From Candidatus Latescibacterota bacterium (GTDB lineage: Bacteria > Latescibacterota > UBA2968 > GCA-2709665): a stretch of 64,000 nucleotides of DNA. The stretch lies in the NCBI GenBank assembly GCA_965237675.1, contig OZ250150.1:4640001-4704000 (forward strand), given 5' to 3'. Below, in pieces: positions 4,660 through 61,561 of the stretch (position 1 is the first letter of the stretch; every line of letters begins with the position of its first letter). The position numbers and the translations under genes are program-made. Under the pieces are notes generated by a model that had not been told where the DNA came from, ran no database searches, and worked only from the letters and a program-made list of their open reading frames with translations.

Positions 4660-5932
4660 ATGGATACCCTTCCGCTATCTGCACGTCCCGATCTCGCAAA
4701 TTACGTGAAACGGGCGGAAGAACTCGTTGAGGTAGCCGGATCCGAGGAATCCAACCCCGTACACGATTGGTGCAACGAGTGTCTTGACGAGATTGTCCGT
4801 CTCTCCGGACCCGACCTGACGGAATTTGTACAGGGCAGCTATCAGCGCGCCATCGGAGAAGTCGAAAAGGGCGCCCGTGAGATGTCCGCGAAGGCAGGCG
4901 AGGGTGGCCGCGGGTTTGCGCTTTCCGACGCGCAATTTCTCATTGCGCGGGCCCACAGTTTCGAGAGTTGGAACGCGTTTGCCGCACACGTCGACCTGGC
5001 CTCACGCGAGACTGCCGAAGGGGCTGAGTTCGAGGTCGCGGCCGATGCGGTGGTCGACGGGAATCTCCCGAAACTCGAGTCGCTCCTGCGGCGGAAACCG
5101 GCGTTGGCGCACGCCCACTCCGGTCGAATGCACCAGGCGACGCTGCTGTATTACCTCGCCGCCAACGGCGTGGAAGACTTTCGCCAGCGGTCGCCCGCCA
5201 ATGCGCCCGAGATCGCGCCTTCTGCTGGACGCAGGTGCCGTGGTGGATGCCATCTGCGGACCCGGTCAATCCGGAGACACGCCGATGTTGGCGTTGGTGA
5301 CCAGTGTTCATCCACACCTTCGCGGCGTCGCGACCGAACTGATCGAGATATTTGTCAAGGCGGGTTCCAAAGTGGACGGACTAAACGGGGACGGCGCACC
5401 GGTACGTCTGGCCCTCAAGTTCGGATATCCCGAGTCGGCAGCCACCCTGGTACGGCTCGGCGCGGAGGTGAAAACCGTCGTGATGGCCGCCGGTGTGGGC
5501 AGGCTGGACCTGACGAGGGAATTCGTCGAAGACCGTGGCGCATCTAAGGCCGACCTCGCGGAGGCGTTTGAGCTTGCCTGTCGGTTCGGACGGACGGATG
5601 CGGCAGCGTACCTGCTGGCGCAGGGGGCCGACGTGGATGGGCGCGGCGCCTGGAATATGACAGGGCTGATGTGGGCCGCAGGCCAGGGACATCTCGACAC
5701 CATGGCCATGATTTTCGATCACGGCCCCGCACTCGAATTGAGGAACGAGTTTGGAGGCACGTCGATGGGCACCGCCCTGCATTTTGCGACCAACGCGCCA
5801 AACCCGGTGGCCGACTATCCGACCGTGATCGACCTGCTCCTGAACGCGGGATTGAAATTCGAAGGATCCAGGAAAGGAACTGGTGTCGCGAATCTGGATA
5901 CCGTGCTTCGCATACACGGACGGATCGGCTAG
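4660..5932 (+). pseudogene. ankyrin-repeat protein, frameshifted near 5215
   Basis: N-terminal LSARPDL...DAQFLIARAHSFESW in one frame; ankyrin repeats (LLLDAGA, GLMWAAGQGHLD) in another. GAGATCGCGCCTTCTG is repaired by adding 2 nt (GC) to give EIARLLLD. Confidence 0.85.
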
Positions 5933-5968: not shown

Positions 5969-6520
5969 TCAAGGCGTAGCCAGGACGGCTGCGCTTTTCT
6001 GTTGGCGAACGCGATTCGCAAAACCGGGTATTGTTTGCCGATCTGAGCACCGCTGGCTCGGCCGCTGAGCCTGAACCCTGAGCCAGTTGCCCCTAAGGCC
6101 TGAACTGAGCCGCCCCCTGAGCCTGTCGAAGGGTCGGCGAAGGGTGTTGAAGCGCGGCGAGCGGTTGCCGAATGCCAGAGCACCAACGGCCCACAGCGAA
6201 ATCCGCTCTGTTAAGGGAAGTTTACTCTTTCTGCGTGATTCCATTGACTCCAAAAGCAAGTCGATCTTGTCGTCATAGTTGGCGACAAGCTTTGGAAGCG
6301 CCCGGAAATCGGCCAAGAAAAAATCGAAACGATCGATCAAAGATCCGTCCTCACCGGCTCCGCCATGACGCCAGGTTTCTTCATCGGACGCCTCCACAGA
6401 CAGATGAAAGAACCAGCAGTCCTGTAGCTCATCGGTACCGCAATACCACATATCGCGGGTATCCTGGTCCAGGAACCGCTCATAGGTACGAGAAATAGGA
6501 ATCGTGCCTCCCGGTTCCAT
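5969..6520 (-). CDS. hypothetical protein; C-terminal ~80 codons are probably read-through into repeats
   Basis: AGGAG RBS and ATG. Protein-like sequence to about 6215, then the frame crosses the GTTAAGG core (6210) and the REP cluster. Confidence 0.55.
   Translation of the reverse strand: MEPGGTIPISRTYERFLDQDTRDMWYCGTDELQDCWFFHLSVEASDEETWRHGGAGEDGSLIDRFDFFLADFRALPKLVANYDDKIDLLLESMESRRKSKLPLTERISLWAVGALAFGNRSPRFNTLRRPFDRLRGRLSSGLRGNWLRVQAQRPSQRCSDRQTIPGFANRVRQQKSAAVLATP
6056..6176. repeat. nested REP-like cluster (unit CCCTGAGCNTGTCGAAGGG)
   Basis: Several CTGAGC left halves followed by TCGAAGGG/CGAAGGG right halves; tail GGTTGCCGAATGCC is identical to the 41.2 kb copy. Confidence 0.8.
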
Positions 6521-6609
6521 TTTGTCTCCTTATCGTGCGTCATTCACTTCCATATTTGCCATTTTCACTTTGCAGTTGAATCGAACGTTATCCCGTCAAC
6601 GACCCGACG

Positions 6610-7047
6610 GTGTGGGTGCAAACGGCGGATCAGACGGTCAGCTTCGCAGCCTCCGACATCGCGTCGTCCGGAAGCAACTACATCAATTTCAACCTGTCTT
6701 CTTCCGCAAGCACGCTCCGCGGCGGCATCGTCGCCGGGGACCGCTTCATCCTGGCCCTGACCCGTCCGCCGACACCTGAACCCACGGCGACGCCCGAGCT
6801 TTAGTCCGTGGTCGTCGGGCCTCATTGGTATAACCCGGAGTTTGCAATGCAGGCGACGGACGCGTGCAAGTACGAACCCATGCGCTCTGTGGATGAGGAC
6901 GGTCGGGGCTATGACCTGGAAAACCTGACATCGGACGAGTACTCTCTTACCGTGAGCTCCCGTCGCCTTCCTGACTTTGCGAACGATATGCTTGACAATT
7001 CGCACATAATGCTTTATGCTGAATTAACCACGCCACCACAGGGTTAA
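6610..7047 (+). pseudogene. relic of a larger, possibly extracellular protein
   Basis: ORFs 6610-6804 and 6808-7047 share a frame and are separated by one TAG; PTPEPTATPE linker; no good start. Confidence 0.4.
6992..7020 (+). promoter_or_regulatory. putative sigma70 promoter of the four-gene operon
   Basis: TTGACA (6992-6997), 17-bp spacer, TATGCT (7015-7020), 140 bp upstream of ATG 7160. Confidence 0.55.
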
Positions 7048-7159
7048 ATTGGCTATTTTGATGACGAGGAACAGTGGGATGTTCCGGTCATGGCTGTGTT
7101 TACGCCACCATTGATCATGTCGCTGGTTCGGCAGGTCTTTCAAACCCAGGAAACACGAT

Positions 7160-7960
7160 ATGGACAGTATCGAACAAGCATTTGACAACTCCGAAAATGC
7201 AGCGAAATCAGCCCTCCAATCCGCTACCAACCTGGTGAAGTTGTCCAGACGTCTGCAAAAGGCGGCCAAAGAGGGTAACATCGCTGTAATCAAGAAGTCC
7301 CGAGGCGGATTTAACGACGCCCTGGAGAACCTGACGCAGGTGGTGGCAGACGCTGTCCAATCCTGGCCCTATGGAGATGAAGAAGTGGAAGAATACCTCA
7401 AGGGTGGCTATACTGACGAACTGCGTCGTGCCGCCTCGGAAATGGGCCTGGAAATCCATGAACGGGACAAGCAGTTGATCTCACACCCGTCCACCTTGCG
7501 AATTTTAACCGAGGATGAGGCGGTCCGAATCGACAACAAGAAGATCTCGACCATTAAGCCGTCCTACCTGGTCGATCTGCTGATCGCGAATCAGAGGAAG
7601 CGCAGCCGCTTCTCGGCTAAACGCTTTCTGGAGGCCCTGTACAAAGTGTACTCGGAGCTTGTGAAGGAAGATTCTTCGGACGGACTCATGACGGGCGGCT
7701 CCGGGCGCGTGGTACTTTTGGCCAGAATCTACAGGTTGTTCACGTCTCTGCCGGGCAGTGGACGAGATTATGCTCAAATTGACTTTGCCCGAGACCTTTA
7801 CCAGTTGGAAACAAGCGGAGTCTCTAAGACGACGTCAGGCGCCAGTATATTCTTCCACGCATCCACGGGAACCCGAGGCGCCAGAAACGTCTTCACCTTT
7901 GTCGGGCCACACGGCCAGGACATCAAGTACTACGGCATTCGGTTTACGAGGGACGAGTGA
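7160..7960 (+). CDS. hypothetical protein, first gene of a candidate defence operon
   Basis: 266 aa, helical/coiled-coil-like N-terminus; stop overlaps the next start (GTGATG). Confidence 0.85.
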   Translation: MDSIEQAFDNSENAAKSALQSATNLVKLSRRLQKAAKEGNIAVIKKSRGGFNDALENLTQVVADAVQSWPYGDEEVEEYLKGGYTDELRRAASEMGLEIHERDKQLISHPSTLRILTEDEAVRIDNKKISTIKPSYLVDLLIANQRKRSRFSAKRFLEALYKVYSELVKEDSSDGLMTGGSGRVVLLARIYRLFTSLPGSGRDYAQIDFARDLYQLETSGVSKTTSGASIFFHASTGTRGARNVFTFVGPHGQDIKYYGIRFTRDE

Positions 7961-8928
7961 TGCACAACACAATCTCCATCTCGCTCAAAGGCTGGCTGCA
8001 GGTCATTGATGAAGAGTACCTTTCGTCGTTCGTCCGAGACGGCGGCGCGTCGATCAAGTTCGCAGTGCCATCAAACGAGGGCTCCAGGGCTGGTTTGTAC
8101 GCAAAAATGGAGGCTAGTTGCCATGAGTTGGACTATCTTTTCATTAAGCTGAACGCAAAGACGATGCGGGCGCACATGCCGCAGGACTTCTTCTTCATGA
8201 TTGCCAGGCAAGTCGATTGGCGGCGGCTGGCACGCCGTATGATCCTGAAGCTGGCCAACGAGAAGGGCTACCGGATTGAGGGAATATGTCCCGGCGTGGA
8301 CGGCAACGTCTTCGACGCCATCGCGACAGTCAACGGTCTCGAATCGGAGTTCGTTCTCGGAAACCTGAGGCCGATGATACAGAACACTGTCTTCAAGAAC
8401 ACGAAGATGGCGAGAGATTTCCGGGTGTGTATGAGCCATCTTTGCATGGAAGAAAACAGTATTGGCGGGTACATGGGCGAGCCGCTATTGGAGTGGCTGA
8501 CGGGCGAGAACACGCGGATTAGCGGCGTCCGGCCCTTTTCCATCTACACCAGTATCAATCGTAACACGGCCAGATACTTCATCGAATCGGCCCTCTACTG
8601 GATTCATCATGTGGGGCACTCCGGAACTGTAGTATTGTTTGACAACGCACGCGTAACGGTGGCTAGAAATCCGAAGGACGATCTGCGCTACTACACCAGA
8701 GCCATGGCGATGGAACACTACGAGTTACTGCGGGAATTTATCGACGGCGTTGACCGGTTGACGAGCACGGTACTGGTGGTCGTAACCAACAACGATTTCC
8801 TCGACGACAGTGGCGATCGCAGGTCCCGAGGCTACGGGATATATGAGGCCCTGCGCACCCGGGTGATGGACGATGTTCGCGATAGGAACAGGGTCAATCC
8901 GGTCGCATCCCTGGTGCGGCTGACATAG
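7957..8928 (+). CDS. DUF2791/BrxD-like P-loop-fold protein with degenerate Walker A/B
   Basis: GGASIKFAV at the strand that precedes the P-loop but no GxxxxGK[ST]; GHSGTVVLFDN at the Walker B position; C-terminal GIYEALRTRV resembles BrxD-family ends. Confidence 0.7.
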   Translation: MMHNTISISLKGWLQVIDEEYLSSFVRDGGASIKFAVPSNEGSRAGLYAKMEASCHELDYLFIKLNAKTMRAHMPQDFFFMIARQVDWRRLARRMILKLANEKGYRIEGICPGVDGNVFDAIATVNGLESEFVLGNLRPMIQNTVFKNTKMARDFRVCMSHLCMEENSIGGYMGEPLLEWLTGENTRISGVRPFSIYTSINRNTARYFIESALYWIHHVGHSGTVVLFDNARVTVARNPKDDLRYYTRAMAMEHYELLREFIDGVDRLTSTVLVVVTNNDFLDDSGDRRSRGYGIYEALRTRVMDDVRDRNRVNPVASLVRLT

Positions 8929-8942
8929 GAAGGTGGAAGGCA

Positions 8943-10211
8943 GTGGCAGTTTGCGCCGATAAACACAAATTCGCCTCCAGGCGAGCCCTGGAGGCTCTCC
9001 GAAACGGCGTACCCAACAGGGACGCAGTGAAGATATTGGGCTGCAACCAGCCTGAGGCTGAAGATCAGTTCGAAGGCATGTTGACCGGGGCTACGGAAGG
9101 CGTCGACCTTTCGTCCGGCACTTTGGGGATCCTGGTCTCAGGCGATTTCGGCTCCGGCAAGTCTCACCTGCTTACTCACCTGGAAGATCGGGCTCTTTCC
9201 CAGGGTTTCGTTTGTAGCAAGGTGACCATCAGCAAGGAGACGCCGCTATACGACCTGGGCAAGGTCTTCAAGTCGGCCGTGGATAACGCCCAGATGCCTG
9301 GCCGTACCGGCCGGTTGATGGAGGAACTGGGACAGGCGTTGAAGCCAGATTCACAAGAATACGCCGGCTTCTTTAAGTGGGCAAACGATACGGGGTCTAA
9401 CGGGCTGAGCCAGATGTTCCCCGCCAGTCTGCTCGTTCACGAACGGGCGGGCGACCTCGAGCTGAACAACGAGATAGAGAACTTCTGGGCGGGCGACAGA
9501 ATCTACATTTCCCGGGTCAAGAATGGCCTCAGGCAGATAGGGCAAAAGCAGAGTTACTCCTTCCGAGCGCCCAGGGTCGCCGACCTGCCGCCCCAGCGTC
9601 TCCGTTTCGCCGTCCAGCTGATCAAGGCTGCTGGTTACAAGGGTTGGGTGGTGCTGCTGGACGAGATCGAACTCGTCGGTTCGTACTCTCTCCTGCAGCG
9701 GGGAAGGTCTTACGCCGAGCTGGCTCGCTGGCTGGGACAGGCCGGCAGCGGGTCCTATCCCGGGCTGAGAACCGTGGGATCCGTCACCAACGATTTTGCT
9801 TCCGCAATCATCACGGATGGAAAAAAAGACCGCGACTACGTGGTACCAAAGTTGGATAGTACGGATCGTTACGAAAGTTTGAAGGCAGACGCCGATACCG
9901 GTATGAGATTGCTCGTGCGAGGATGTTTGCCGTTGAATCAACCAACAGACGCGGACGTTCAATTGACCATGGAGAATCTACGGAGACTCTACACCGACGC
10001 CTACGGCTGGGATGCTCCGCCGGTACCAATTAGGGCCGGCGGCGCCGGGTATCAGAACCGGATGCGCTACAAGGTCCGCGCCGCCATCAATGAATGGGAT
10101 TTGATGCGGCGCTATCCTGACTACCAGCCCAATACTGAGGGCGAGGAGTTCCGACACCCCTATGCAGAGAACGCCGACCTCGAACGAGAGTCCCGGGACG
10201 ACACTGATTAA
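8943..10211 (+). CDS. DUF2791/BrxD-like AAA+ ATPase
   Basis: RRALEALRNGVP N-terminus, Walker A GDFGSGKS, ISKETPL, Walker B GYKGWVVLLDEIE. Confidence 0.85.
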   Translation: MAVCADKHKFASRRALEALRNGVPNRDAVKILGCNQPEAEDQFEGMLTGATEGVDLSSGTLGILVSGDFGSGKSHLLTHLEDRALSQGFVCSKVTISKETPLYDLGKVFKSAVDNAQMPGRTGRLMEELGQALKPDSQEYAGFFKWANDTGSNGLSQMFPASLLVHERAGDLELNNEIENFWAGDRIYISRVKNGLRQIGQKQSYSFRAPRVADLPPQRLRFAVQLIKAAGYKGWVVLLDEIELVGSYSLLQRGRSYAELARWLGQAGSGSYPGLRTVGSVTNDFASAIITDGKKDRDYVVPKLDSTDRYESLKADADTGMRLLVRGCLPLNQPTDADVQLTMENLRRLYTDAYGWDAPPVPIRAGGAGYQNRMRYKVRAAINEWDLMRRYPDYQPNTEGEEFRHPYAENADLERESRDDTD

Positions 10212-10246
10212 AATGCGACCATTTCTCCTTCCTGGGGGAAACTGAA

Positions 10247-12379
10247 TTGCCGGAACTTTTTGATGAACTGAAATCGGTGAATACGGGATCCGGCGCGGTG
10301 GCCTGGCTGCGGTTCGTCGAAGAAAAGGGCGGTAATGGCATACGGGCGGCGCTATTCCAGACGTCCGCACAGGGTGAACCACTGGACTTCTGCTTCACGC
10401 GGACGGTTTGCTCGGGATCTGGCGGACAACTGGCAATCGTCAAGCCGGGTTTCTTGCTATCGCTGGTAAAATCACTACTCAGAGCTATCACTTCTGTGCC
10501 AACGTTGATACTCGCTCGGGCCGATGAAGTACCTTATGGATCGATCAACGAAGAAATAAAGGTACAAGTACCCTTTTGCCGTATCGCAACATCCGGTGTT
10601 CGGCCCAATGGCGAATCGGACGACCCGCATAACGAAGGCTATGAATTGCTTTGGGTTACTGAAAAACCCAATCCAGATACCGAAGCGAGCCAACTTCTCG
10701 TAGAGATACTGGACCGGGGCAATCCCGCTGAACCTTTCGAACGGGCGACTGCAGGATTGGACGTAGCGTTTGGCGACGATCGGATTCACGCTGTCACCGA
10801 CCTTTCGGGTTTGGCCGTTGTAGTGAGCTTATCTTCATTGCCCGAACGCCCCGGATATCCAGCCAGCGATTACTCGGCAATTCGTGAGAATATCCATAAG
10901 GCAAGTTCAGGCCCACGACCCGACGTAACTCTGGCCGAACGTTTGTGGACCGTTCTGGCCAATCCGCCGGAACCTTCGCGAACGATCCCGCTGCATTGGG
11001 CCGGTGACTTGATGCCCTTCCAGGAGCAGGGTGTCCGGGCTTTGCTGGAAAACCGCCGGCTGCTGTTAGCCGACGACATGGGCCTGGGTAAAACCGTACA
11101 GGCGATCACAGCCTTACGGATTCTCCGGGCACGTCGCGAAATCAAATCGTGCTTGATCACGGCTCCTGCAAGCGTGCTGAACCAGTGGCGGCGCGAAATC
11201 GAAAAGTGGGCGCCTGAGCTTTCCGCCATCATCATCCGTGGTTCGGTATCGGACCGCAGTTGGCAGTGGCATGCCGAGAAAGAAATAACACTCGTGAGTT
11301 ACGATACTCTGAGGTCCGACTTCAGCACCCAATCTCTGGTGGGTCGCAAAAATTGGGATGTGGTCGTAGCGGACGAGGCTCAGAGAATCAAGAACCGCAA
11401 CGATACGAGCGATGCCCTGAAGGGGTTGAAAAGAAATCGCTCCTGGGCTCTGACCGGCACCCCTATGGAAAATCGCGAAGAGGAGCTGGCCTCGATACTG
11501 GAGTTCGTTGATTATGACCGCACTGGAGTGACAAAGCGGTACCGTCCAGGTGTGGAATTGCAGAGGCGTCACCGTGAGTTGCAGGTTCGACGCAAAAAAG
11601 CGGAGGTCTTGAAAGACCTGCCCGTCAAGCAGGTCACGAAGGCAGACATCGAGTTGGGCTCCCGCCAACGCGAGAGCTACGATAAGGCCGAACAGGAAGG
11701 CATCGTCTACCTGAAGTCTCTTGGCGCGGAAGTCAACGTGCGGCACGTGCTTGAGCTCATCACTCGCTTGAAGCAAATCTGTAACGCCGACCCAAAGACC
11801 GGTGAATCCAGCAAATTGGCCGACATCAAGGACCGCGTGGACCAACTGGTATCCCAGGGACACAAGACGCTAATCTTTTCGCAATACGTCAGCGACACAT
11901 CCGGCGTGGGCGCCGTGGCCAACCACGTGCGAGATTTCATTCCGCTTACCATCACGGGAGACTTGCCCCAGGAGGAGCGAGCCGAGATCATCGAACGATT
12001 CAAAACCTGCAGCGAACACAAAGTGTTGGTACTGTCGCTGCGGGCGGGCGGACTGGGATTGAACCTGCAGGAGGCGTCCTACGTGATTCACCTGGACCGT
12101 TGGTGGAACCCCGCCGTAGAAAGTCAAGCCGAAGACCGAAGCCACCGCATCGGCCAGACGGTCAAAGTCAACGTCATCAAGTATTCCTGCATCGGAACCA
12201 TTGAGGAGCGTATTGACGATATTCTGGAGAACAAACGGGAACTGTTCAACCAACTCATCGACGATGTGTCGATGGATCTGTCCGCCCAGTTGAACAGTGA
12301 TGAACTTTTCGGGCTGTTCGGACTAGCACGGCCGCTCGACTCGTGCATTCAGGATAAAAAAGGACCAATCCAAAAGTAG
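10247..12379 (+). CDS. SNF2/SWI2-family helicase with an unrecognised ~240-aa N-terminal region
   Basis: LLADDMGLGKT, DEAQRIKN, ALTGTPMEN, GGLGLNL, WWNPAVESQAEDRSHRIGQ. Confidence 0.95.
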   Translation: MPELFDELKSVNTGSGAVAWLRFVEEKGGNGIRAALFQTSAQGEPLDFCFTRTVCSGSGGQLAIVKPGFLLSLVKSLLRAITSVPTLILARADEVPYGSINEEIKVQVPFCRIATSGVRPNGESDDPHNEGYELLWVTEKPNPDTEASQLLVEILDRGNPAEPFERATAGLDVAFGDDRIHAVTDLSGLAVVVSLSSLPERPGYPASDYSAIRENIHKASSGPRPDVTLAERLWTVLANPPEPSRTIPLHWAGDLMPFQEQGVRALLENRRLLLADDMGLGKTVQAITALRILRARREIKSCLITAPASVLNQWRREIEKWAPELSAIIIRGSVSDRSWQWHAEKEITLVSYDTLRSDFSTQSLVGRKNWDVVVADEAQRIKNRNDTSDALKGLKRNRSWALTGTPMENREEELASILEFVDYDRTGVTKRYRPGVELQRRHRELQVRRKKAEVLKDLPVKQVTKADIELGSRQRESYDKAEQEGIVYLKSLGAEVNVRHVLELITRLKQICNADPKTGESSKLADIKDRVDQLVSQGHKTLIFSQYVSDTSGVGAVANHVRDFIPLTITGDLPQEERAEIIERFKTCSEHKVLVLSLRAGGLGLNLQEASYVIHLDRWWNPAVESQAEDRSHRIGQTVKVNVIKYSCIGTIEERIDDILENKRELFNQLIDDVSMDLSAQLNSDELFGLFGLARPLDSCIQDKKGPIQK

Positions 12380-12632
12380 AGTAGAGATGGGGCGCAGCGT
12401 GATTCGAGCCGTGACCGAAAAGCGCGAGACGCAGACGCAAACCTTCCGCGTGTTTGCAGTTCCGTGGCAGGCAATCCACACGTGTCTGCGCCTTGCTGTG
12501 CCGATCTCGCGATGGCACACAGTGTGATGCTCAACCCTGCCCTTCGGCCAACGCCCTTTTTGCTGTCGTATTATCTACCAATAGACGATATAACGCGATT
12601 CACAAACCCTCGAGCCAAAAGGAGATCTCACA

Positions 12633-12836
12633 TTGCAGGCTCCAACACCGCAAGACAAACTGGCCGAATTTGACGCCCGTTCGTCGCGGATCGAGGGGAT
12701 TGTTGAGCAGATGGATGCACGCTTGAACAGCCTCCAGCAAGGCCAACGTGATATTTTGTCCTGGATTCGATGGCTTTTAGGAATCCAGATTACAAGCTTG
12801 ATCACGCTTGGCACGCTCATTTTGATCAAGCTTTGA
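12633..12836 (+). CDS. small coiled-coil protein with C-terminal TM helix
   Basis: AGGAG RBS; heptad-like N-terminus and hydrophobic WIRWLLGIQITSLITLGTLILIKL. Confidence 0.65.
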   Translation: MQAPTPQDKLAEFDARSSRIEGIVEQMDARLNSLQQGQRDILSWIRWLLGIQITSLITLGTLILIKL

Positions 12837-13099
12837 TCGAGCTTGGATAACCCCAACTGCGGGTTTCCAATTCCGCGATATAGACCCGCGGCCTCATTGA
12901 AACCCCTTCGACAAGCTCCTAAGTGTCGGTACTGATGCATCCGTCAACGTTCGGCGTTGCTTCGCCATCTTCATTGTTCCCTATTTTTAAAAAGGGAATT
13001 ATAGCGCAAAGTCACATTTCAACGATACCCGCACTTTGTTCCCCTTCCTGTTACGGTCTGTACAACCCGGTACGTACATGCGTTTCTATATTTTTATAC

Positions 13100-13129
13100 T
13101 TGACAAACCGTACTCCGTTAACGTACTTT
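13100..13129 (+). promoter_or_regulatory. putative sigma70 promoter
   Basis: TTGACA (13100-13105), 18 bp, TACTTT (13124-13129), upstream of ATG 13169. Confidence 0.45.
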
Positions 13130-13168
13130 TGTGAAAAGATATGCAAATGACAACCACGGGAGTACGCA

Positions 13169-13525
13169 ATGAACGGGAAAACTACAAGGTCGTTGTCAGA
13201 TGTCATTCAAGTAAACGTCCTTTTGTATAGGAACGAAGATGTTTGGATTGCTCAGGGTCTTGAATATGATATTGTTGCTCAAGGACAGACAATACCCCAG
13301 GTCAGGGCTCGGTTTTACGTTACAATTATGACTCATTGCCATTTTGATGCCACAAATAACCGGGAAATCTTACAAGGCATTGAGAAGGCCCCTGAGAAGT
13401 TCTGGACCATGTTTGAAGAAGCCGAGGACGCTCAGCTAAAACGCAATCATCGTCGATTTGCTCTTGATGAATGGAAAACATCTTTGATGCCTGTTGTAAA
13501 AGCGAACTCTCGCGTTTGCGCATGA
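13169..13525 (+). CDS. HicB-like (partial RNase H fold) antitoxin candidate
   Basis: VLLYRNEDVWIAQGLEYDIVAQGQT resembles the HicB N-terminal domain; AT-rich. Confidence 0.6.
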   Translation: MNGKTTRSLSDVIQVNVLLYRNEDVWIAQGLEYDIVAQGQTIPQVRARFYVTIMTHCHFDATNNREILQGIEKAPEKFWTMFEEAEDAQLKRNHRRFALDEWKTSLMPVVKANSRVCA

Positions 13526-13535
13526 GGATTTCGCT

Positions 13536-13781
13536 GTGTTTTATCTGACGTTTGAACAGTTCAAAGAGTGTTTAATACAAAATTTCGATTGCGAATGTGA
13601 TATTCAGGAAAGCGGCACAGATGTTATTGGAACTTATTGGGGTTTTACCCGCACAGTCGACGGAGAATTACTATATTCAGGAACAGCAGGCAAACCCAAT
13701 GAACAAATCAGGAGACCACAAATCAGAGCAGTTTTGAGAGCATTGCAAATAGACCGGAATGAATTTTACGGTCATGTTTAA
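13536..13781 (+). CDS. small protein, possible divergent HicA-like partner
   Basis: 81 aa; C-terminal IRAVLRALQIDRNEF resembles HicA ends; no GSH motif. Confidence 0.5.
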   Translation: MFYLTFEQFKECLIQNFDCECDIQESGTDVIGTYWGFTRTVDGELLYSGTAGKPNEQIRRPQIRAVLRALQIDRNEFYGHV

Positions 13782-13830
13782 AGAAGCAAATCTCAAAAAG
13801 TAACCTGACCTCCCATAACGCTATCAACAG

Positions 13831-13866
13831 CCTGCCAGAAGTAACATACTGGCAGGTTTTTTATTT
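13831..13866 (+). terminator. rho-independent terminator
   Basis: CCTGCCAG-N10-CTGGCAGG followed by a T run. Confidence 0.75.
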
Positions 13867-13901
13867 CCCTAACCCTTACCCATATTGTTGCCAGCGTTAT
13901 C

Positions 13902-14081
13902 CTACCGCTTCCCTTTCGGATCAACAATCCGAAGTTCTACATCCTGAACAACCGCCCGTAGCAACTCCTCCGGGCTCGCATCTATCACAATCTCCTCTTC
14001 CATCTCCGCCTTCGTTGGCCTATACCGACTATCAACAACCTCTACCACCGGCTTCTTCTTACGCTCATCCGTAGTACCCAT
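13902..14081 (-). CDS. small hypothetical protein (59 aa)
   Basis: MGTTDERKKKPVVEVVDSRYRPTKAEMEEEIVIDASPEELLRAVV; ends at the shared terminator region. Confidence 0.55.
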   Translation of the reverse strand: MGTTDERKKKPVVEVVDSRYRPTKAEMEEEIVIDASPEELLRAVVQDVELRIVDPKGKR

Positions 14082-14155
14082 TACAATTCCCATTTGAAAG
14101 CGGGGAACTGTCTCATCTAATATAGGCACAGAGGGTATCGAGTGCTCCCATGTAT

Positions 14156-15447: not shown

Positions 15448-15840
15448 TCAGTCTTCGGTGTCAAGCCCTGTTCTTATCGCATCCAATCCTATCGCCATAC
15501 CCGGAGGATTGTGATCCATCGCCACGAACCCACTGCTCAACAGATGCGCTCTCAGATTCTTCGGCTCTGCTTTCGGACCAAACTTCAGGATCGGTGGAAG
15601 CTTCCTCTGCTCAATCTCCTCACGAATACGGTGTATCCGGCTCTCGAGAGTTTCGTCGCGGAAGCGAGGTTCGACGAGGTAGTTCGGCCACCACGGCTTT
15701 CCGATGACCACGGTGAAGTCTTCCTCCCTCAAGATGGTTTTTCGGCCCATGGCGGCGGCGAAGAGGAACAGATCGATGTTGTTCTGCTCGATCGCAGCCG
15801 TGACCTGGGAATCCGAATAGTTTTTCAAAATAGAAGACAT
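15448..15840 (-). pseudogene. probable N-terminal fragment of a GNAT-family protein
   Basis: L..HLLSSGF...PGMAIGL is typical of the N-terminal half of two-domain GNATs; the ORF ends right after it. Confidence 0.45.
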
Positions 15841-24690: not shown

Positions 24691-24846
24691 GCGCAACGTG
24701 TCCGCGGGCTGCGAACCTGGCGCAATTTCAGTGAACGATACGCCGGTCGCCGAACCCCGAGCTGAGCCGCTGAGCCTTGCCCTGAGCTTTTACAGTGAGC
24801 CTGCGGTCCCTGAGCTTGTCGAAGGGTCGAAGGGCTGTCGAAAGGT
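24691..24846 (-). repeat. two adjacent attC-like half sites plus nested REP cluster
   Basis: GCGCAAC-N6-GCGGGCTGCGAACCTGG (also at 55481), AGTGAAC-N6-CCGGTCGCCGAA, then CTGAGC/TCGAAGGG cluster at 24755-24846. Confidence 0.7.
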
Positions 24847-24848
24847 TA

Positions 24849-25262
24849 TCATAGCCGTTGCTGTTGCTTGAGTTCGGGGACGATGTACTTCCGCAAGATA
24901 GGATTCAGTGGATATTTCCCCGATTCGAGATCCTCCATAGATGCCCAGGCGATCTTGAGCACCTCGTCCTGGTCCGGAACAGGTTCTCCCTCAAAACCTG
25001 CTACGTATGCTCGAACTCTAACCCTGTACCTCTCACCGGTCTTCGAAGGGTAGGCCAGACGCTCGTATTCGCCGAAGAATTCAGGATCCGTGGGGGTAAT
25101 GTTGAGCTCTTCCATCAGTTCTCTCCGCAACGAATCCAGATCCGACTCACCGTCCTCGAGCTTTCCGCCAGGCAAGAGGTAATCCTCGATGCCATCGCAC
25201 TTCACCAGCAAGAGGCCATCCTGCGTAATCAGAATCCCCGAGATGCGAACGATCGTCTTCAT
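24849..25262 (-). CDS. NUDIX hydrolase (MutT-like)
   Basis: GGKLEDGESDLDSLRRELMEEL. Confidence 0.9.
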   Translation of the reverse strand: MKTIVRISGILITQDGLLLVKCDGIEDYLLPGGKLEDGESDLDSLRRELMEELNITPTDPEFFGEYERLAYPSKTGERYRVRVRAYVAGFEGEPVPDQDEVLKIAWASMEDLESGKYPLNPILRKYIVPELKQQQRL

Positions 25263-30492: not shown

Positions 30493-30690
30493 ATGTAAGG
30501 GAGTACCGGTCTGCGACCCCGAGCTGAGCCGCTGAGCCGGAACCCTGTGCCTTGCCCTGAGCTTGCGGTCCCTGAGAATGTCGAAGGGCTGTCGAAGGGC
30601 CGAAGGGCTGTCCAAGGGTGTCGAGGGGTTGCCCGTGGGCAACGCACGAACGCGCTGCACCGGAACACCGACGTGCTCGGCGACGCGGGT
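30493..30690 (-). repeat. attC-like site inflated by a nested REP cluster
   Basis: CCGGTCTGCGA at 30506, about six left halves and five right halves at 30517-30632; distal arm matches the 33.5 kb copy. Confidence 0.75.
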
Positions 30691-41129: not shown

Positions 41130-41279
41130 AAATAACGATTTCCAGTTTCCGAACCCCGAGCCCGGCCGCCAAGCCTGAACCCTGGACCTGCACCCTGGCC
41201 TTGCCCTGAGCTTGTGGTCCCTGAGCCTGTCGAAGGGCCGAAGGGCTGTCGAAGGGTGCCGATGGGGTTGCCGAATGCC
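41130..41279 (-). repeat. attC-like site inflated by a nested REP cluster
   Basis: AAATAAC-gattt-CCAGTTTCCGAA, stacked CCCTG(A)GC halves, then three CGAAGGG halves. Confidence 0.78.
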
Positions 41280-48400: not shown

Positions 48401-49213
48401 CTAACCGAACTGTTCTTCCAGCCATGCGATCGCGAAGTCTGCCAGATCCCTGGCGTCGAACAGAAACGAGTCCGCGGCGCCAACCCACCCCTCCGCGCAG
48501 CGTCCGCGAGCCATATACGCTTTTGAAATGGCCCGGAAATAGCTGCCATCGGGCCAGTCAGCGATTCCATTGGAAGTATCAAACTGCTCGAACTCGATCC
48601 ATTCGCACTTGCCACCGCGCAAGACGGGCCACCGATAGCGCTCAGTTCTCTTGTTGGGCACGTCAGCAATGTGTTCCGCGTAGTGGAGAATGGTGAGGCT
48701 ATCGAAAAGCGGTCCAAGCAGGAGTATTTTCCCCCGAACTTCGCACAACTTCTCGAGGGGGGAATCCACGCCATAACCGAACTGAAGCGGATGGTCCGAT
48801 GTTATCCAATCCGCGCTCGCGCCAACTGCTGCCACTCGTGCCTCAGGATGGGCGCTGCAACGTGCCCCTGGCCATGTGCGCAGGTACTCTGTAAGGATGC
48901 TCCACTCACGAAAGGCGCGAGTCCGGGAAGGATCAAATGGTGGGCACTCTGCCAGATAGGCTTTCTGCCAGTCCTCCGGCCAATCATCAATTTCGTTCAA
49001 TGGTTCCTCGCACTTCACGTACATCATCAAGGTCCCCGTTGAACCGAGCACGTCCAGGATCGCCCGAAGCACCATTTCAGGGCCCCCTACGATCCAGCCG
49101 ACTGCCTTGACAGAAGCATGCAGCATCAAGGTGTCGCCAGCGGCAAGCCCCAGTTTCGATAAGTCTGATACCAATCTGCTTCGTGTAATCACCGGCAGAT
49201 CTGTGTTGACCAT
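48401..49213 (-). CDS. aac(3): aminoglycoside 3-N-acetyltransferase family, copy 1
   Basis: MLHASVKAVGWIVGG, GTLMMY, SAHP, YGVDSPL, TILHYAEH; start placed at ATG 49213. Confidence 0.92.
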   Translation of the reverse strand: MVNTDLPVITRSRLVSDLSKLGLAAGDTLMLHASVKAVGWIVGGPEMVLRAILDVLGSTGTLMMYVKCEEPLNEIDDWPEDWQKAYLAECPPFDPSRTRAFREWSILTEYLRTWPGARCSAHPEARVAAVGASADWITSDHPLQFGYGVDSPLEKLCEVRGKILLLGPLFDSLTILHYAEHIADVPNKRTERYRWPVLRGGKCEWIEFEQFDTSNGIADWPDGSYFRAISKAYMARGRCAEGWVGAADSFLFDARDLADFAIAWLEEQFG

Positions 49214-49322
49214 GCTGACCGCCTCTCGCGTCAGGGAAGACCTTGCATTGCAGTCTACGGTCTGGCCGCGTGCGAACCCACCGAGCGCAGCGGAGGTGGA
49301 TTTCCGCAGGCCATGAATTATG

Positions 49323-49670
49323 TCAACTCTCACCCCAGTTCTTGACCAGGTCGCGGTCGGCGCCCCCCTGTGCCAGCACCGGTATTTCCGACCGGGTCCG
49401 CACCGGGATATTTGGATCGGCTCCCGATTGCAACAAAAACCGCACGACGTCAACCCGGTCGCCGCGTGCTGCTTCCCACAGAAACGTCCGGTTGTGCCCG
49501 CCGCTCTTGGCCAGCAGCAGCGACGGTTCCCGCTTCAGATGCCGTTTTACAGCGTACAAATCTTCGCGTCGTGCATCCTTTCAAATCCTGTCGATACCGA
49601 AGCGGCCGCTGTGGCCTGAACGCGGCTTGACTTCATCTCCCCATTCGTGGTCGTCCGGAGCCGTACCCAT
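49323..49670 (-). pseudogene. truncated ankyrin-repeat gene with in-frame TGA
   Basis: ATG 49670 ...DRI*KDARR...TFLWEAARGDRVDVVRFLLQSGADPN. Confidence 0.6.
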
Positions 49671-49907
49671 CGTCTTTGCACCTGATTCAGCCGCTATTTC
49701 GGACTACTGACGTTACGTCGATTTCCGAACCCCGCGCTCGGCCGCAGCGCATACCCTGAGCCGCTCACATTTGCACAAGTGGATGTAATGGAAGATGTAC
49801 GAACCCGAAAGATCGCCAAAAGAAACAACGGGGCGGTCATCACCCCGTTTCGTGTTTTTTTCCTGATAGGCGTACCAATTTTGCCGTAGACGATGTTAGA
49901 TATCAGT

Positions 49908-54035: not shown

Positions 54036-54860
54036 CTAACCGAAGTGTTCTTCCAGCCATGCGACCGCAAAATCGGCCAGATCCGTCGCGTCGAACAGAT
54101 ACGAATCTGCGGCTCCAACCCGCCCCTCCGAGAAGCGTCCACGAGCCATATATGCTTTCGAGATGCACTGGAAATAGCTGCCATCGGGCCAGTCGGCGAT
54201 TCCTCCTGAAGTATCAAACTGCTCGAACGCTATCCATTCGCACTTGCCGTCGCGCAAGACCGGCCATCGATAGCGCTCAGTTCTCTTGTTGGGCACGTCA
54301 GCGATATGCTCTGCGTAGTGAAGAATGGTCAGGCTGTCGAACAGCGGTCCGAGCAGAAGTACTTTCCCCCCAACGTCGCACAGCTTCTCGAGGGGGGAAT
54401 CTACGCCGTAACCAAACTGAAGCGGATGATCTGACGTTAGCCATTCCGCCCTCGCGCCAACTGCCGCCACTCTTGCCTCGGGATGGTTGCTGCAATGCAC
54501 CCCGGGCCATGTGCGAAGGTACTCTGTAAGGATACTCCACCGACGATTGGCGCGAGTCCGGTACGGGTCAAACGGCGGGCACTCTGCCAGATAGGCTTTC
54601 TGCCAGTCCTCCGGCCAATCATCGATTTCGTTCAACGGTTCCTCACACTTAATGTACATCATCAAAGTCCCAGTTGAACCGAGCACGTCAAGGATCGACC
54701 GTAGCACCACGTTAGGCCCCCCGACGATCCAGCCGACCGCCTTGACGGAGGCATGCAGCATCACCGTGTCGCCAGAGGCAAGCCCCAGTTTCGACAAGTC
54801 GGATACCAAGCTGCTTCGTGTGATCACCGGCAGATTTGTGTTGGCCACGCTGTATGCCAC
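54036..54860 (-). CDS. aac(3): aminoglycoside 3-N-acetyltransferase family, copy 2
   Basis: Collinear with and highly similar to 48401-49213. Confidence 0.92.
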   Translation of the reverse strand: MAYSVANTNLPVITRSSLVSDLSKLGLASGDTVMLHASVKAVGWIVGGPNVVLRSILDVLGSTGTLMMYIKCEEPLNEIDDWPEDWQKAYLAECPPFDPYRTRANRRWSILTEYLRTWPGVHCSNHPEARVAAVGARAEWLTSDHPLQFGYGVDSPLEKLCDVGGKVLLLGPLFDSLTILHYAEHIADVPNKRTERYRWPVLRDGKCEWIAFEQFDTSGGIADWPDGSYFQCISKAYMARGRFSEGRVGAADSYLFDATDLADFAVAWLEEHFG

Positions 54861-58295: not shown

Positions 58296-59077
58296 CAAGG
58301 TTGAATCCTAGAATTTAAGTGGGATCTGCGGTGCATTTAGCCTGAATAATTCACAAAAAAGGTAGTTTCCATACCCAAGTCATTGTATTATATTATGGTT
58401 ACGCAAATAACCTAATAACAATGAAACAGGAGGAAACTACCGTGGGAGTTCAAGATAAACATCACAGGTTGTCTTTCGCAAGTCTTTCTGGTAGGCAGGT
58501 AGAAGCCACGTTCGACGGGGGCGTGCTGACGACCGACGTCGGGGTGATGCTGCTTCGTGAGGTCGAGGCCAATGTCGGCATTTTGCATCGGATGGTTGCG
58601 GCGCTCACCGATCATCGACATCAAAGTTACGTACATCATTCGATGATGGACCTGATCAAACAACGTGTCTTTCAGATGGCCTGTGGGTATGAGGATGCGA
58701 ATGATTGCAAGACGTTACGCGAGGACCCCGGCTTCAAGGCGGCCTGTGATCGGTTGCCGTTGTCTGGCGCGGACCTGGCCAGTCAGCCCACGATGAGTCG
58801 GTTCGAGAACCGCATCAGCAGAACCGATTTGTATCGGATCGCCAAGGCCTTTGCGGATGTGTTTGTCGCCTCGTATGAGGAACCGCCGGAAGCCATTCTG
58901 TTGGACATCGATGACACCGAAGACAAGGTGCATGGGTCTCAACAGTTGTCGTTGTTCAATGCGTATTTCAATGGCTATTGCTACCAGCCCCTGCATATCT
59001 ATGAAGGCCAAACCGGCAAGTTGATCACGACGGTCTTGCGTCCTGGCAGGCGGCCTGCGGGTAAAGAGATCGTCACC

Positions 59078-60502
59078 GGGATTGTGCCTATCTTAGTTGA
59101 AATAGAAGAGGCTCCGATGTAAATTGGATACGGCAGTCTCGACGAAGAAGACCGTATCCTCAACCAAAGGAGCCTGTGATGAAAAAAGTACCGTCGAACC
59201 TCCGTGAAGTCAAGTCGAATAGGGATGCCGGGGTGACGTCTGGCGCCTTCCTGGGAGAAGCCCTGGAGGATGTTGACGTCCGTGTGGCATTGATCCAAGC
59301 GCTGATCCCGCTTGGTCTGGACGCTGTGGCAGAAATCTTGCAGCAAGAGGTTGCCGGGTTGACGGGCAAGAAACACAGTCGTAAAGCGGGCAAGACCCCG
59401 AATCGTCGGTGGGGCGCTCAACCGGGATCGGTGTATCTGTCGGATCAAAAAGTGCCCATTACGGTGCCCAGGGTGCGTGACGTGGAAGCCAATGAGGAAG
59501 TTCCTCTGGAGGTATATCACCACTTGCAGCGACCCAGAAACATGGACGGAGGGTTGCTGCTGCGCGTGGTCAGCGGCATTGCGACGCGTTCTTACGCCAG
59601 TTGCGCAGAGGCGATACCCGAGGCGTTTGGCTTGTCTTCATCGAGTGTCTCGAGGCGGTTCATCAGGGCATCGGCGGCCAAGCTGAGACAGTTTCAAGAA
59701 CGGTTTCTTTCGGGCTATGACCTGGTGGGGCTGTTTATGGATGGCAAGACCTTTGCCGATCAGGAAATGATCATCGCCCTTGGCGTGACCATCGACGGGC
59801 ACAAGATCCCGCTGGGGTTCGTGCAGGCCGCCAGCGAAAATGAGCGCGTGTGCCGCCAGTTTGTCGATTCGCTCATCGATCGCGGATTGCAGTATCACCA
59901 AGGGCTGCTTTGCCTCATCGACGGCTCAAAGGGCTTGTATAGTGCCCTCACAAAAGCCCTTTCCGGTTATGTCGCCATTCAACGCTGTCAGTGGCACAAA
60001 CGGGAGAACGTGATCGCCTATTTGCCCAAGACACAGCAGAGTGAGGTCAAGAAAGCGCTTCAAAGTGCCTACGACATGGACACCTACAAAGAAGCCAAAG
60101 CCGCGCTGTATGCCCTCAAGCCCTCCCTGACCCTGATGAATGCATCGGCCCTCAACAGCCTGGAGGAAGGGCTCGAAGAAACCCTCACCCTCCATCGCCT
60201 GGGACTGATGCCACAACTCAAGCAATCGTTTCGCACCACCAACTGCATCGAATCCCTCAACGCCATGATCGCACAGCGCACCCGTAATGTGAAACGATGG
60301 AACAACTCCGATCAGCGATATCGGTGGTTGGCAGCCGCGCTGTTGGATATCGAGCCCCGATTGCGGAGGATCAAAGGATACCGCTTTCTTCCCGTACTCA
60401 GACTTGCCCTACGCAATCATCTCGCGCTCGATCATGACACGCAAAACGCTTTCGCCGCTGATTGAACGCCTCTGCTATTTCAACTAATAATAGTACTTGC
60501 CC
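59078..60502 (+). mobile_element. IS256-family insertion sequence (1425 bp)
   Basis: 8-bp target duplication TCGTCACC (59070-59077, 60503-60510); 28-bp imperfect inverted repeats GGG...TTAGTTGAAATAG. Confidence 0.95.
59176..60465 (+). CDS. IS256-family (mutator) transposase
   Basis: VPRVRD, FMDG, IDGSKGL, QRCQWHK, RTTNCIESLN. Confidence 0.95.
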   Translation: MMKKVPSNLREVKSNRDAGVTSGAFLGEALEDVDVRVALIQALIPLGLDAVAEILQQEVAGLTGKKHSRKAGKTPNRRWGAQPGSVYLSDQKVPITVPRVRDVEANEEVPLEVYHHLQRPRNMDGGLLLRVVSGIATRSYASCAEAIPEAFGLSSSSVSRRFIRASAAKLRQFQERFLSGYDLVGLFMDGKTFADQEMIIALGVTIDGHKIPLGFVQAASENERVCRQFVDSLIDRGLQYHQGLLCLIDGSKGLYSALTKALSGYVAIQRCQWHKRENVIAYLPKTQQSEVKKALQSAYDMDTYKEAKAALYALKPSLTLMNASALNSLEEGLEETLTLHRLGLMPQLKQSFRTTNCIESLNAMIAQRTRNVKRWNNSDQRYRWLAAALLDIEPRLRRIKGYRFLPVLRLALRNHLALDHDTQNAFAAD

Positions 60503-61561
60503 TCGTCACCATCCTCAAACGGGTGATCGCCTACCTGCGTAAAGCCTGGCCCGACGTGGAGATCCTGTTACGTGGCGATGCGCATTTTTCGTGTCCGGAA
60601 GTGCACGTGTTGTGTGAGGAAGAAGATGTGTATTTTGTCCTCGGACAGAACGGCAACGCCAAACTCCTGCGGAAGGCACAGTCCTTGATAGACCAGGCCA
60701 AAACGCGGTATGCCGATTCCGGAGAAACCGTGCGCCTTTATCGCTGTTGGGCCTATCAGGCCGGCACCTGGGCGTGTCCACAACGCATCGTCTGCAAGGC
60801 GGAAGTGACACCGCAAGGTGTCAATATCCGATTCGTGGTCACCAACCTGAAGCGCGCCCAACCGTCATTCATCTACAAAACCGCCTATTGCACACGCGGC
60901 AGGATGGAAAACTTCATCAAAAATCACAAGACCTTTCTCCATTCCGATCGCACCTCTTGTCACACCTTCCAGGCCAATCACTTCCGTCTCTTTCTCCACA
61001 GCGCCGCCTATGTCCTGATGCACAGCCTGGCTGCAATCGGATTGCGCGGCACGAAGTGGACCAACGCACAGTTCAATACCCTGCAAAATCGTCTCTTGAA
61101 AGTCGCCGGGCGCGTTTGTGAGTTGAAAACTAAAATCAAGTTCCATCTGCCAACGGCGTTTCCACTCAAACACCTTTATGGCAAGATCCTCTATAATCTG
61201 GCAACGGGTGTTCCATAACCCATCGACGTGCTGACCCCGCCTTCACATTTGCATCGACCACCACCAAAGGTCATGGAGAAGTCTGTGCGCTTGACACGGG
61301 CATCGAGGTCAACCTGACGTCACGAGGCAAAGCAGGCGCCGCCCAAACGGCTTGAACACGCCAAATCCGTCACAGCCCATGCGCTTTCGTTTCTTGTCTC
61401 ACTCGGAAGCTCTTTCTGCTTCCTTAAAATGCTCTATCTGACGATTCATGAATTAATCGGGCTAGCATAACATATCCGCCGGTTAAGTACCCGCCAAAGC
61501 ATGGCGTAGGTGAGTTGGTCTCAGACCACGGCCCGCAAACGACGCCGCCCAAGAGGACATT

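Follow-up and report, generated by a model that had tools for sequence, protein, structure and literature searches.

To our knowledge, ATPases of the BrxD and SngB types always travel with a helicase, and we know of no established job for them. BrxD and the helicase BrxHI occur together in type 2 Pgl and type 6 BREX; the available text of PMC12839542 classes BrxD as an ORC/Cdc6-type AAA+ protein, treats BrxD and BrxHI as a closely linked dyad and proposes that BrxD loads or activates the helicase. The same text also covers DUF499-centred BREX-related systems with methylases, which are distinct from the module treated here. Shango is built from the TerB-like protein SngA, the ATPase SngB and the DEAD/DEAH helicase SngC, and protects Pseudomonas against several phages according to the available text of two reports (10.1101/2022.11.11.516204; 10.1101/2022.05.11.491447). 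We analyzed a stretch of 64,000 nucleotides from a Candidatus Latescibacterota bacterium (assembly GCA_965237675.1, contig OZ250150.1, positions 4,640,001 to 4,704,000 of the forward strand; this whole stretch is called the window), which contains an operon of four genes, A to D, coding for a small protein, two BrxD-like proteins and an SNF2-type helicase. The module is real, conserved and unnamed, and a role in defence, which we infer from its composition and distribution, is plausible.

Open reading frame (ORF) calling gave four intact, tightly packed genes on the plus strand, spanning 7160-12379 of the window (Table 1). Genes A and B overlap, and gaps of 14 bp and 35 bp separate B from C and C from D; this was the layout given by the initial annotation. 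The A/B junction was also overlapping in most related loci when their ORFs were extracted, and gene B more likely starts at the ATG at 7960 than at 7957, which would leave a TGATG overlap of 1 nt with A, as in the relatives.

Judged by its sequence, gene C is an intact BrxD/DUF2791-type (ORC/Cdc6-like AAA+) ATPase. It matched PF10923 (BrxC_BrxD, which we take to be the family formerly named DUF2791) at 66.1 bits, and gene B matched the same family at 32.5 bits over residues 174-322 only, both past the gathering threshold of 22.2 bits. The GxGKS motif and the D-E of VVLLDEIE were invariant in all 39 gene C sequences, and the GSGKS and DEAQ motifs that had been picked out beforehand in the operon were present. 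The E value of gene C on the PADLOC BrxD model was 1.8e-15, and gene B matched this model as well. On the NCBIfam BrxD equivalog NF033438, C scored 57.3 bits and B 22.6 bits, below the cut-off of 350 bits, and the true BrxD proteins of two BREX loci (L042 and L044) scored 531-540 bits on the PADLOC BrxD model; on these profiles gene C is not an orthologous BrxD. The match of gene C to PADLOC SngB was weak (2.3e-5, 21.7 bits) and covered residues 64-103 only (40 residues), and the BrxC models were touched at the P-loop only (16 bits in PADLOC; 19.1 bits in NCBIfam, with a cut-off of 400). Comparison of the B and C profiles with PDB sequences gave nothing meaningful, the best E values being 0.057 for B and 0.007 for C, at the P-loop only.

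Gene B is best read as a degenerate BrxD/DUF2791-like paralogue, predicted to be dead for hydrolysis, because it has no Walker A motif (GK[ST] in 0/38 sequences) and has D-N or D-I in place of D-E. The Walker B Asp was kept in 38/38 sequences, and the next residue was N in 35 and I in 3, never E. This reading also rests on the alignment of the D-N of B to the D-E of the first BrxD-like ATPase of a plasmid module from Desulfomonile (see below), whose residues 185-312 were matched by gene B (hhalign 95%). The kinship of B and C is drawn from their shared Pfam family and from this match of B to the Desulfomonile ATPase. As directly recognisable paralogues the two were rejected (hhalign probability 5.7%, not significant). 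The ATPase-like gene had been described as doubled, and two PF10923 genes are indeed present, but only C is intact.

Gene D belongs to the SNF2 family, as had been proposed, with 157.9 bits on PF00176 and 73.4 bits on PF00271, and the GLGKT and DEAQ motifs of its motor were invariant in 31/31 sequences. The best PADLOC models for D were ZorD (2.5e-84), DpdE (5e-65) and DrmD (4e-41), which aligned to the motor region only; SngC was not among the best 25 of the 47 PADLOC matches of D. The NCBIfam scores were 151.3 bits for ZorD (cut-off 1500) and 80.2 and 69.7 bits for DrmD (cut-offs 950 and 610). The second-best NCBIfam model for D was pilus_reg_Snf2, at 256.6 bits with a cut-off of 1100, and the match to RapA was weak.

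The N-terminal part of gene D had been taken as a region of no known type. Residues 1-245 had no Pfam match and no sequence-level match in the libraries searched, but the predicted structure of the domain is an RNase H-like fold of the EndoV (endonuclease V)/UvrC C-terminal/PIWI type. The AlphaFold2 (AF2) model, with a predicted local distance difference test score (pLDDT) of 73.3, has three strands, a helix and a strand, followed by more helices and strands. A Foldseek search of the PDB gave 30 matches at E<=1e-3, the best being EndoV (4xpu_A, 1e-4), the C-terminal half of UvrC (2nrt) and Argonaute PIWI, and all the named matches were EndoV, the UvrC C-half, Argonaute or short-Argonaute complexes. 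Residues 18-196 aligned to the EndoV, UvrC and PIWI structures with Foldseek E values of 1e-4 to 1e-3 and a probability of about 1.0, at modest TM-scores of 0.28-0.40; the Atlas search with this domain gave low scores only (0.78 and 0.76). PIWI and EndoV are grouped as one clade (PIWI-like) of the RNase H fold in the available text of PMC3702460. In contrast to the EndoV/UvrC/PIWI clade, MID, PAZ and guide-binding features were not evident in D.

Conserved acidic residues were found in the domain at E94 (31/31), E162 (30/31), D177 (28/31) and E26 (26/31, at the end of strand 1). These residues may belong to a catalytic metal site of the DEDD/H type, and nuclease activity is possible. The domain is probably an autonomous unit, because it is encoded separately in three Tectimicrobiota/Entotheonella loci (L021, L026 and L028), in which the N-domain (179-184 amino acids) and the motor (589-596 amino acids) are adjacent ORFs, with a 4-nt overlap in L026 and a 7-nt gap in L021. 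The N-domain evolves faster than the motor, with ratios of nonsynonymous to synonymous substitution (dN/dS) of 0.20-0.39 vs 0.09-0.14.

Gene A codes, as far as the profile and structure searches indicate, for a protein of a new family. Nothing beyond noise was found at E<=0.1 in Pfam, PADLOC or NCBIfam, and Foldseek with the AF2 model (pLDDT 87.7, from an alignment of 39 sequences) gave 0 matches at E<=1e-3 in the PDB and BFVD. The model consists of a long helical hairpin at residues 4-67, helices, a small beta unit at 100-129, further helices and a four-stranded C-terminal unit at 187-264. The nearest Atlas clusters (scores 0.96-0.97) were unnamed 'hypothetical protein' clusters of 262-269 amino acids without a Pfam family. 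No TerB domain was found in A by Pfam, by PADLOC (E<=0.1) or by Foldseek against the PDB (E<=1e-3), in agreement with the initial annotation. The dN/dS of gene A was 0.14-0.27. Kinship of A with gene C was looked for, and none was found. Complex prediction for B with A gave a score of 0.00 in a run without controls, which is evidence neither way.

The relatives of the module were collected in a single genome scan with gene C as the query, which gave 45 loci. Loci L001-L041 were close relatives at 46-96% identity, and L042-L045 were distant, genuine PglX-PglZ-BrxD-BrxHI BREX loci reached at 25% identity. The 41 relatives came from 8 phyla, with hosts that included, by record title, Latescibacterota, Chloroflexota (including Dehalococcoidia), Tectimicrobiota/Entotheonella, Binatia, Alpha- and Gammaproteobacteria (including Ca. 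Spongiihabitans), Acidobacteriota, Actinomycetota and Nitrospirota; several titles named sponge-associated candidate taxa. By tblastn, 39 of the 41 loci had A, 40 had B and 38 had D; in every case the genes were on one strand, and their order was A-B-C-D throughout. Contig ends cut 4 of the 41 loci, and 34 of the other 37 had the complete set of four genes. The four-gene synteny that the initial annotation had set as a check, helicase included, was thus borne out, and the module stands alone as it had supposed: tblastn probes for PglX and PglZ taken from the true BREX locus L044 matched 0/41 loci and nothing in the 64-kb window, so that the homologues do not always sit inside complete BREX loci. 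The PglZ probe matched L042, L043 and L047 as a control. Pfam likewise gave no PglZ among 54 ORFs of the window and no large ATPase ORF of the BrxC/PglY type (DUF499-type large P-loop ATPase) was present in the module. No N6 DNA methylase was seen in the window, where the methyltransferase ORFs were small and of the Methyltransf_11/25 type; the PAPS reductase of type 4 BREX was not probed specifically.

The dN/dS values were 0.12-0.27 for every gene (8 comparisons per gene), by which all four genes are under purifying selection. In a quick maximum-likelihood tree of gene C (39 rows, 8 phylum labels), the Latescibacterota clade grouped with Chloroflexota rows with 85% support, the Gammaproteobacteria were paired with an Acidobacteriota row, and a Nitrospirota row fell among the Tectimicrobiota. 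These cross-phylum groupings, together with a gene C identity of 46-75% across phyla, argue for horizontal transfer, and point to a four-gene operon shared horizontally among uncultured bacteria of eight phyla. The flanks of the module vary between genomes, and in Latescibacterota it stands at one chromosomal position across 6 genomes.

Five loci were exceptional. In L032, D was absent and the C ORF was shortened to 243 amino acids; L030 had a stop in C; and in L018, B was reduced to about its last 65 residues. Of the two Ca. Spongiihabitans loci, L036 lacked D and had a frameshifted B, and L039 also lacked D, with A, B and C apparently intact and a transposase upstream; in this lineage D may be dispensable or encoded at another place, or else the lineage may be losing the module. 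All five look like decaying copies, and such patchy gain and loss would be typical of accessory defence genes.

A sister architecture was found on plasmids. The only plasmid match to gene C (24% identity, E 5e-6) was the second ATPase of a module on pDESTI.01 of Desulfomonile tiedjei, which codes for a hypothetical protein of 279 amino acids, two 'BREX system ATP-binding domain' proteins of 430 and 397 amino acids and a DEAD/DEAH helicase of 701 amino acids, with overlapping junctions. This module adjoins an AbiEii/AbiEi pair, with ParA and a helix-turn-helix (HTH) protein nearby. PADLOC recognised both of its ATPases as BrxD/SngB-like and its helicase as BrxHI (4e-87) or SngC (8e-74), and gave no match for its first gene. 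The same module was found on plasmid3 of Aulosira laxa (L047), directly after PglX-PglZ-BrxD-BrxHI; within 1-13395 of L047, two ATPase-helicase sets thus stand side by side, the second of them divergent. In plasmids, tblastn gave no match to A, B or the N-domain of D, and in phages none to A or C.

The reading towards which we lean is a self-contained, horizontally mobile operon of a BrxD/SngB-type AAA+ ATPase and a superfamily 2 (SF2) helicase, which would act against phages or other invaders independently of methylation. This defence reading rests on the matches of B and C to BrxD, of C weakly to SngB, and of the D motor to ZorD, DpdE and DrmD; on the conserved order, purifying selection, cross-phylum spread and patchy gain and loss; and on the sister modules that adjoin AbiE (pDESTI.01) and BREX (Aulosira plasmid3). 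In the mechanism that we propose, B, as the inactive partner, and C, as the active one, would combine in a mixed AAA+ assembly, A would be an adaptor or sensor, and together they would recognise a cue in DNA or from an invader. By analogy with the BrxD-BrxHI proposal, the B/C assembly would load or switch on D, which would translocate on the target DNA while its N-domain binds, and possibly nicks, ends, flaps or damaged sites; the outcome would be that invader replication is blocked. As no methylase is present, discrimination of self from non-self would rest on DNA structure or on A. The most specific form of this proposal is tentative: an unnamed methylation-independent immune system, in which an inactive/active BrxD-like pair and a new-fold sensor A would license an SNF2 translocase with an EndoV/PIWI-type domain, and which would have been passed among at least 8 phyla of uncultured bacteria and be a branch of a wider unnamed 'double-BrxD + helicase' family whose helicase was swapped (BrxHI-like to SNF2).

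Several observations weigh against the defence reading. The immediate neighbours of the module, surveyed in 38 loci as the two ORFs that flank it on either side (150 ORFs, after one of 151 was dropped), were mostly housekeeping genes by Pfam that differed by lineage, such as those for an ammonium transporter, methylenetetrahydrofolate reductase (MTHFR), CinA, DnaE and PyrD. At E<=1e-12, PADLOC matched 9 of the 150 ORFs, and the convincing defence neighbours were 4 ORFs in 3 of the 38 loci (Table 1). The association with defence islands, which the initial annotation had suggested as a check, is therefore weak among the close relatives. No acidic residue is invariant in strand 1 of the nuclease-like domain, and cleavage by the domain is uncertain for that reason. 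The first gene in the sister modules lined up colinearly with A (residues 83-224 vs 81-244) at an hhalign probability of 10.6% (E 0.0029), and homology of the two is uncertain. The scan reaches close relatives only, and the apparent confinement of the module to these uncultured lineages could be produced by the search or could reflect a niche-specific role.

The operon could instead be an accessory module for DNA repair or replication rescue, in which flaps or DNA with damage or deamination would be recognised by the EndoV/UvrC-like domain, stalled complexes would be remodelled by the SNF2 motor, and the AAA+ pair would serve as the loader. The best matches of the D N-domain are repair nucleases (EndoV and the UvrC C-half), the neighbours are mostly housekeeping genes, including DnaE (L008) and CinA (L021, L026 and L028), and neither a modification gene nor a clear toxin was seen. 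However, the patchy distribution across phyla, in which several genomes show loss or decay, the BREX and Shango ATPases as the nearest sequence families of B and C, and the sister modules beside AbiE and BREX on plasmids fit repair poorly, and a nuclease-like domain that evolves faster than its motor is more usual in conflict systems; we regard a repair role as unlikely. Maintenance or replication of a mobile element, with ORC/Cdc6-like ATPases as initiators or loaders for the helicase of the element, appears improbable. SNF2 enzymes work as translocases and not as helicases of replication; the conserved unit is just the module; in Latescibacterota it has a single chromosomal position in 6 genomes; and no integrase, relaxase or replication gene recurs beside it at the 38 chromosomal loci examined, among which one transposase was seen (L039). 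These points are set against the ORC/Cdc6-type classification of BrxD (PMC12839542, available text) and the plasmid-borne sister module near ParA and an HTH protein in pDESTI.01, both of which would suit such a role.

We also considered a transcription or chromatin-type regulator with a niche-specific role, in which accessory ATPases would assist an SNF2 remodeller of the kind of RapA or of the 'pilus expression-regulating Snf2 helicase'. The pilus_reg_Snf2 and RapA matches of D and the ankyrin-repeat gene upstream in the Latescibacterota loci would agree with this. However, these matches are limited to the generic motor, with scores far short of the cut-offs, the ankyrin gene is a lineage-specific neighbour and is broken in the window, and B and C have no kin in regulatory families, which makes a regulator quite improbable. 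Finally, the PF10923 matches in B and C, and the fact that the same scan reached true BREX loci (L042-L045) at 25% identity, could be explained by a decayed remnant of type 2 or type 6 BREX that has lost PglX, PglZ and BrxC. This is very improbable: the helicase is of the SNF2 type rather than the BrxHI type, and gene C reached 57 bits on the BrxD equivalog model, compared with the 531-540 bits that true BrxD of L042 and L044 reached on the PADLOC BrxD model. The decayed-BREX reading was rejected on the dN/dS values, which show purifying selection on all four genes, and on the absence of PglX and PglZ from the 41 loci.

A sigma-70-type promoter candidate, TTGACA-17-TATGCT, lies upstream of gene A at the place given by the initial annotation. 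It was the sole 10/12 consensus match within 6000-13500, where promoter-like sites as such were in no excess (3 observed vs a shuffle mean of 3.5). Both hexamers were invariant in the window and L001-L005 (upstream alignment, 85% mean column identity), and the homology of the window to L002-L005 restarts at 6961-6964, directly upstream of the -35 hexamer. The 139-nt leader that separates gene A from the promoter contains an inverted repeat, which formed a hairpin in both the minimum free energy and the centroid folds; its arms were mostly kept across 6 sequences, and it may be an operator for a regulator or an RNA leader hairpin. The leader as a whole folded no better than shuffles (z = 0.77), and an Rfam search of the whole 64-kb window, leader included, gave 0 matches.

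Table 1. Features of the four-gene module and its relatives (positions in the window unless a locus is named)
Feature	Position	Strand	Description
Promoter candidate	6992-7020	+	Sigma-70-type; TTGACA 6992-6997, 17-nt spacer, TATGCT 7015-7020
Inverted repeat	7061-7091	+	GGAACA...TGTTCC core; inside the 139-nt leader between promoter and gene A
Gene A	7160-7960	+	266 aa (amino acid) ORF
Gene B	7957-8928	+	323 aa ORF; 322 aa from ATG 7960
Gene C	8943-10211	+	422 aa ORF
Gene D	10247-12379	+	710 aa ORF
Gene D, N-terminal domain	10247-11008	+	Residues 1-254; predicted RNase H-like fold, then disordered linker
Gene D, SNF2 core	11009-12379	+	SNF2-rel_dom 260-515, Helicase_C 530-636, then C-terminal tail
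Split D, L021	11294-13610		N-domain and motor as separate ORFs
Split D, L026	11275-13616		N-domain and motor as separate ORFs
Split D, L028	about 11290-13610		N-domain and motor as separate ORFs
Defence neighbour, L022			PDC-M23B
Defence neighbour, L033			NsnB-like
Defence neighbours, L037			Type IIG restriction-modification (RM) + methylase

The neighbours included scattered Pfam exceptions to the housekeeping pattern, namely HigB, ParD, Xre-MbcA, Uma2, NYN, AAA_15/21, the transposase of L039 and a type ISP/IIG enzyme; toxin-antitoxin or Uma2 genes adjoined the module in about 6 loci.

In the window, the module is undamaged among pseudogenes, as initially reported, and this holds locally. Each of its genes aligned in one frame with 0 stops to the orthologues in L001, L002 and L005, and in comparison with the same loci the neighbours at 5972-6543, 12382-12870 and 15451-15840 and an ankyrin gene near 5117-5217 were broken by frame changes or stops; assembly indel errors could inflate the apparent number of breaks. 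The ankyrin-repeat gene upstream of the module (4660-5926) is split over two frames in the window and intact elsewhere, with 424 amino acids in L002, L004 and L005 and 428 in L003; in the Latescibacterota loci, the module is found in synteny with this neighbouring gene and with one for a pyridoxal phosphate (PLP)-dependent decarboxylase. The stretch of about 950 bp that separates the ankyrin gene from the promoter (6011-6964) is present in the window and L001 and absent in L002-L005, and contains copies of a repeated intergenic element and the broken ORF 5972-6543. Intergenic repeats with many GAGCC and GAAGGG motifs, the longest of about 150 nt, occur at five places in the window (6038-6188, 24743-24862, 30505-30652, 41142-41273 and 49718-49752; families D2-D5, D7 and D8), and may be an element of the repetitive extragenic palindromic (REP) or miniature inverted-repeat transposable element (MITE) kind. 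Downstream of D, 12380-14150 has no ORF of more than 121 amino acids and a low G+C content of 0.478 (over 12001-14000); it is 90-93% identical to L002 and L005 and holds the remains of a 163-amino-acid ORF that is intact in L001.

Most of the window ORFs with a Pfam match are on the minus strand, so the module does run against the array as had been noted, but there was no attC evidence of an integron. An integron reading of the array was rejected, since a simple search showed no attC-like RYYYAAC...GTTRRRY pair with a stable stem between genes; the sole stable candidate lay inside gene D. Two paralogues of the aminoglycoside 3-N-acetyltransferase family (48401-49453 and 54036-54860) share a 300-nt stretch of 86% identity and lie inside a long run of small minus-strand genes (GNAT, methyltransferase, NUDIX, glyoxalase and phosphotransferase) in which no attC-like sites were found. 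Nested insertion sequences were found at 58421-61218, where the two halves of a DDE_Tnp_1_4 gene (58421-59122 and 60523-61218) are split by a Mutator-family transposase (59176-60465).

The module offers a minimal, methylase-free partnership of ATPase and helicase that is open to study without the rest of BREX, and it comes with natural variants: a paralogue predicted to lack ATPase activity, a helicase of a swapped family, and a nuclease-like domain, fused in most genomes and encoded apart in three. Should it protect against phages, the defence catalogue would gain a new system along with a new protein family (A), and cross-phylum sharing of defence genes among uncultured lineages would be documented. 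If it does not, there would still be an EndoV/PIWI-type fold, as modelled, on an SNF2 motor that the sequence libraries searched did not recognise.

Among the described systems, the BrxD-BrxHI dyad resembles the module in having a PF10923 ATPase directly upstream of an SF2 helicase, but the module has no PglX, PglZ or BrxC, its helicase is of another SF2 family, and A and B are extra. Shango is alike in being stand-alone and methylase-free, with a small non-enzymatic first gene followed by a BrxD-superfamily ATPase and an SF2 helicase. In contrast to Shango, A has no TerB domain, there are two ATPase-like genes, one of them degenerate, and the helicase is of the SNF2 type with a predicted EndoV/PIWI-fold N-domain, whereas the helicase of Shango is Lhr/Ski2-like (SngC, DEAD/DEAH). 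The SNF2 motor of D strongly matches the PADLOC models of ZorD (Zorya), DrmD (DISARM) and DpdE (Dpd), and ZorD, labelled 'SWI2/SNF2 helicase, Mrr-like nuclease' in PADLOC, likewise joins an SNF2 motor to a nuclease-type domain. However, the motor alone aligns, and the accessory domain of D is predicted to be RNase H-like, not Mrr/PD-(D/E)xK. The partner genes of Zorya, DISARM and Dpd were not found among the scanned ORFs: no ZorA/ZorB-like match was seen among the scanned neighbours, and the general Pfam scan of the window ORFs gave no DrmA or DrmB, for which no specific probe was used. Since A has no match and B and C are far below the NCBIfam BrxD cut-off, the module is, on these profile comparisons, neither BREX nor Shango nor another system of PADLOC v2.0.0. 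No printed description of this architecture was found in the literature searched, and supplements, such as Supplementary Data S1 of PMC12839542, may list such neighbourhoods.

The initial annotation had called the architecture unrecognised, which holds for the systems of PADLOC v2.0.0, but its kind is not unique, as the plasmids of Desulfomonile and Aulosira carry a sister module. The plasmid module agrees with the operon in the number and order of genes, in the overlapping junctions and in protein sizes (279/430/397/701 vs 266/322/422/710 amino acids). It differs in that its first ATPase has a full-length PF10923 match (177.8 bits, residues 4-407) and in that its helicase is BrxHI/SngC-like, with an N-terminal motor and no EndoV-like domain. 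Taken with the profile matches, the operon in the window is read as a branch of an unnamed family made up of a small protein, two BrxD-like ATPases and an SF2 helicase, a branch in which the helicase is of the SNF2 type with a predicted EndoV/PIWI-fold domain and the first ATPase is without catalytic motifs.

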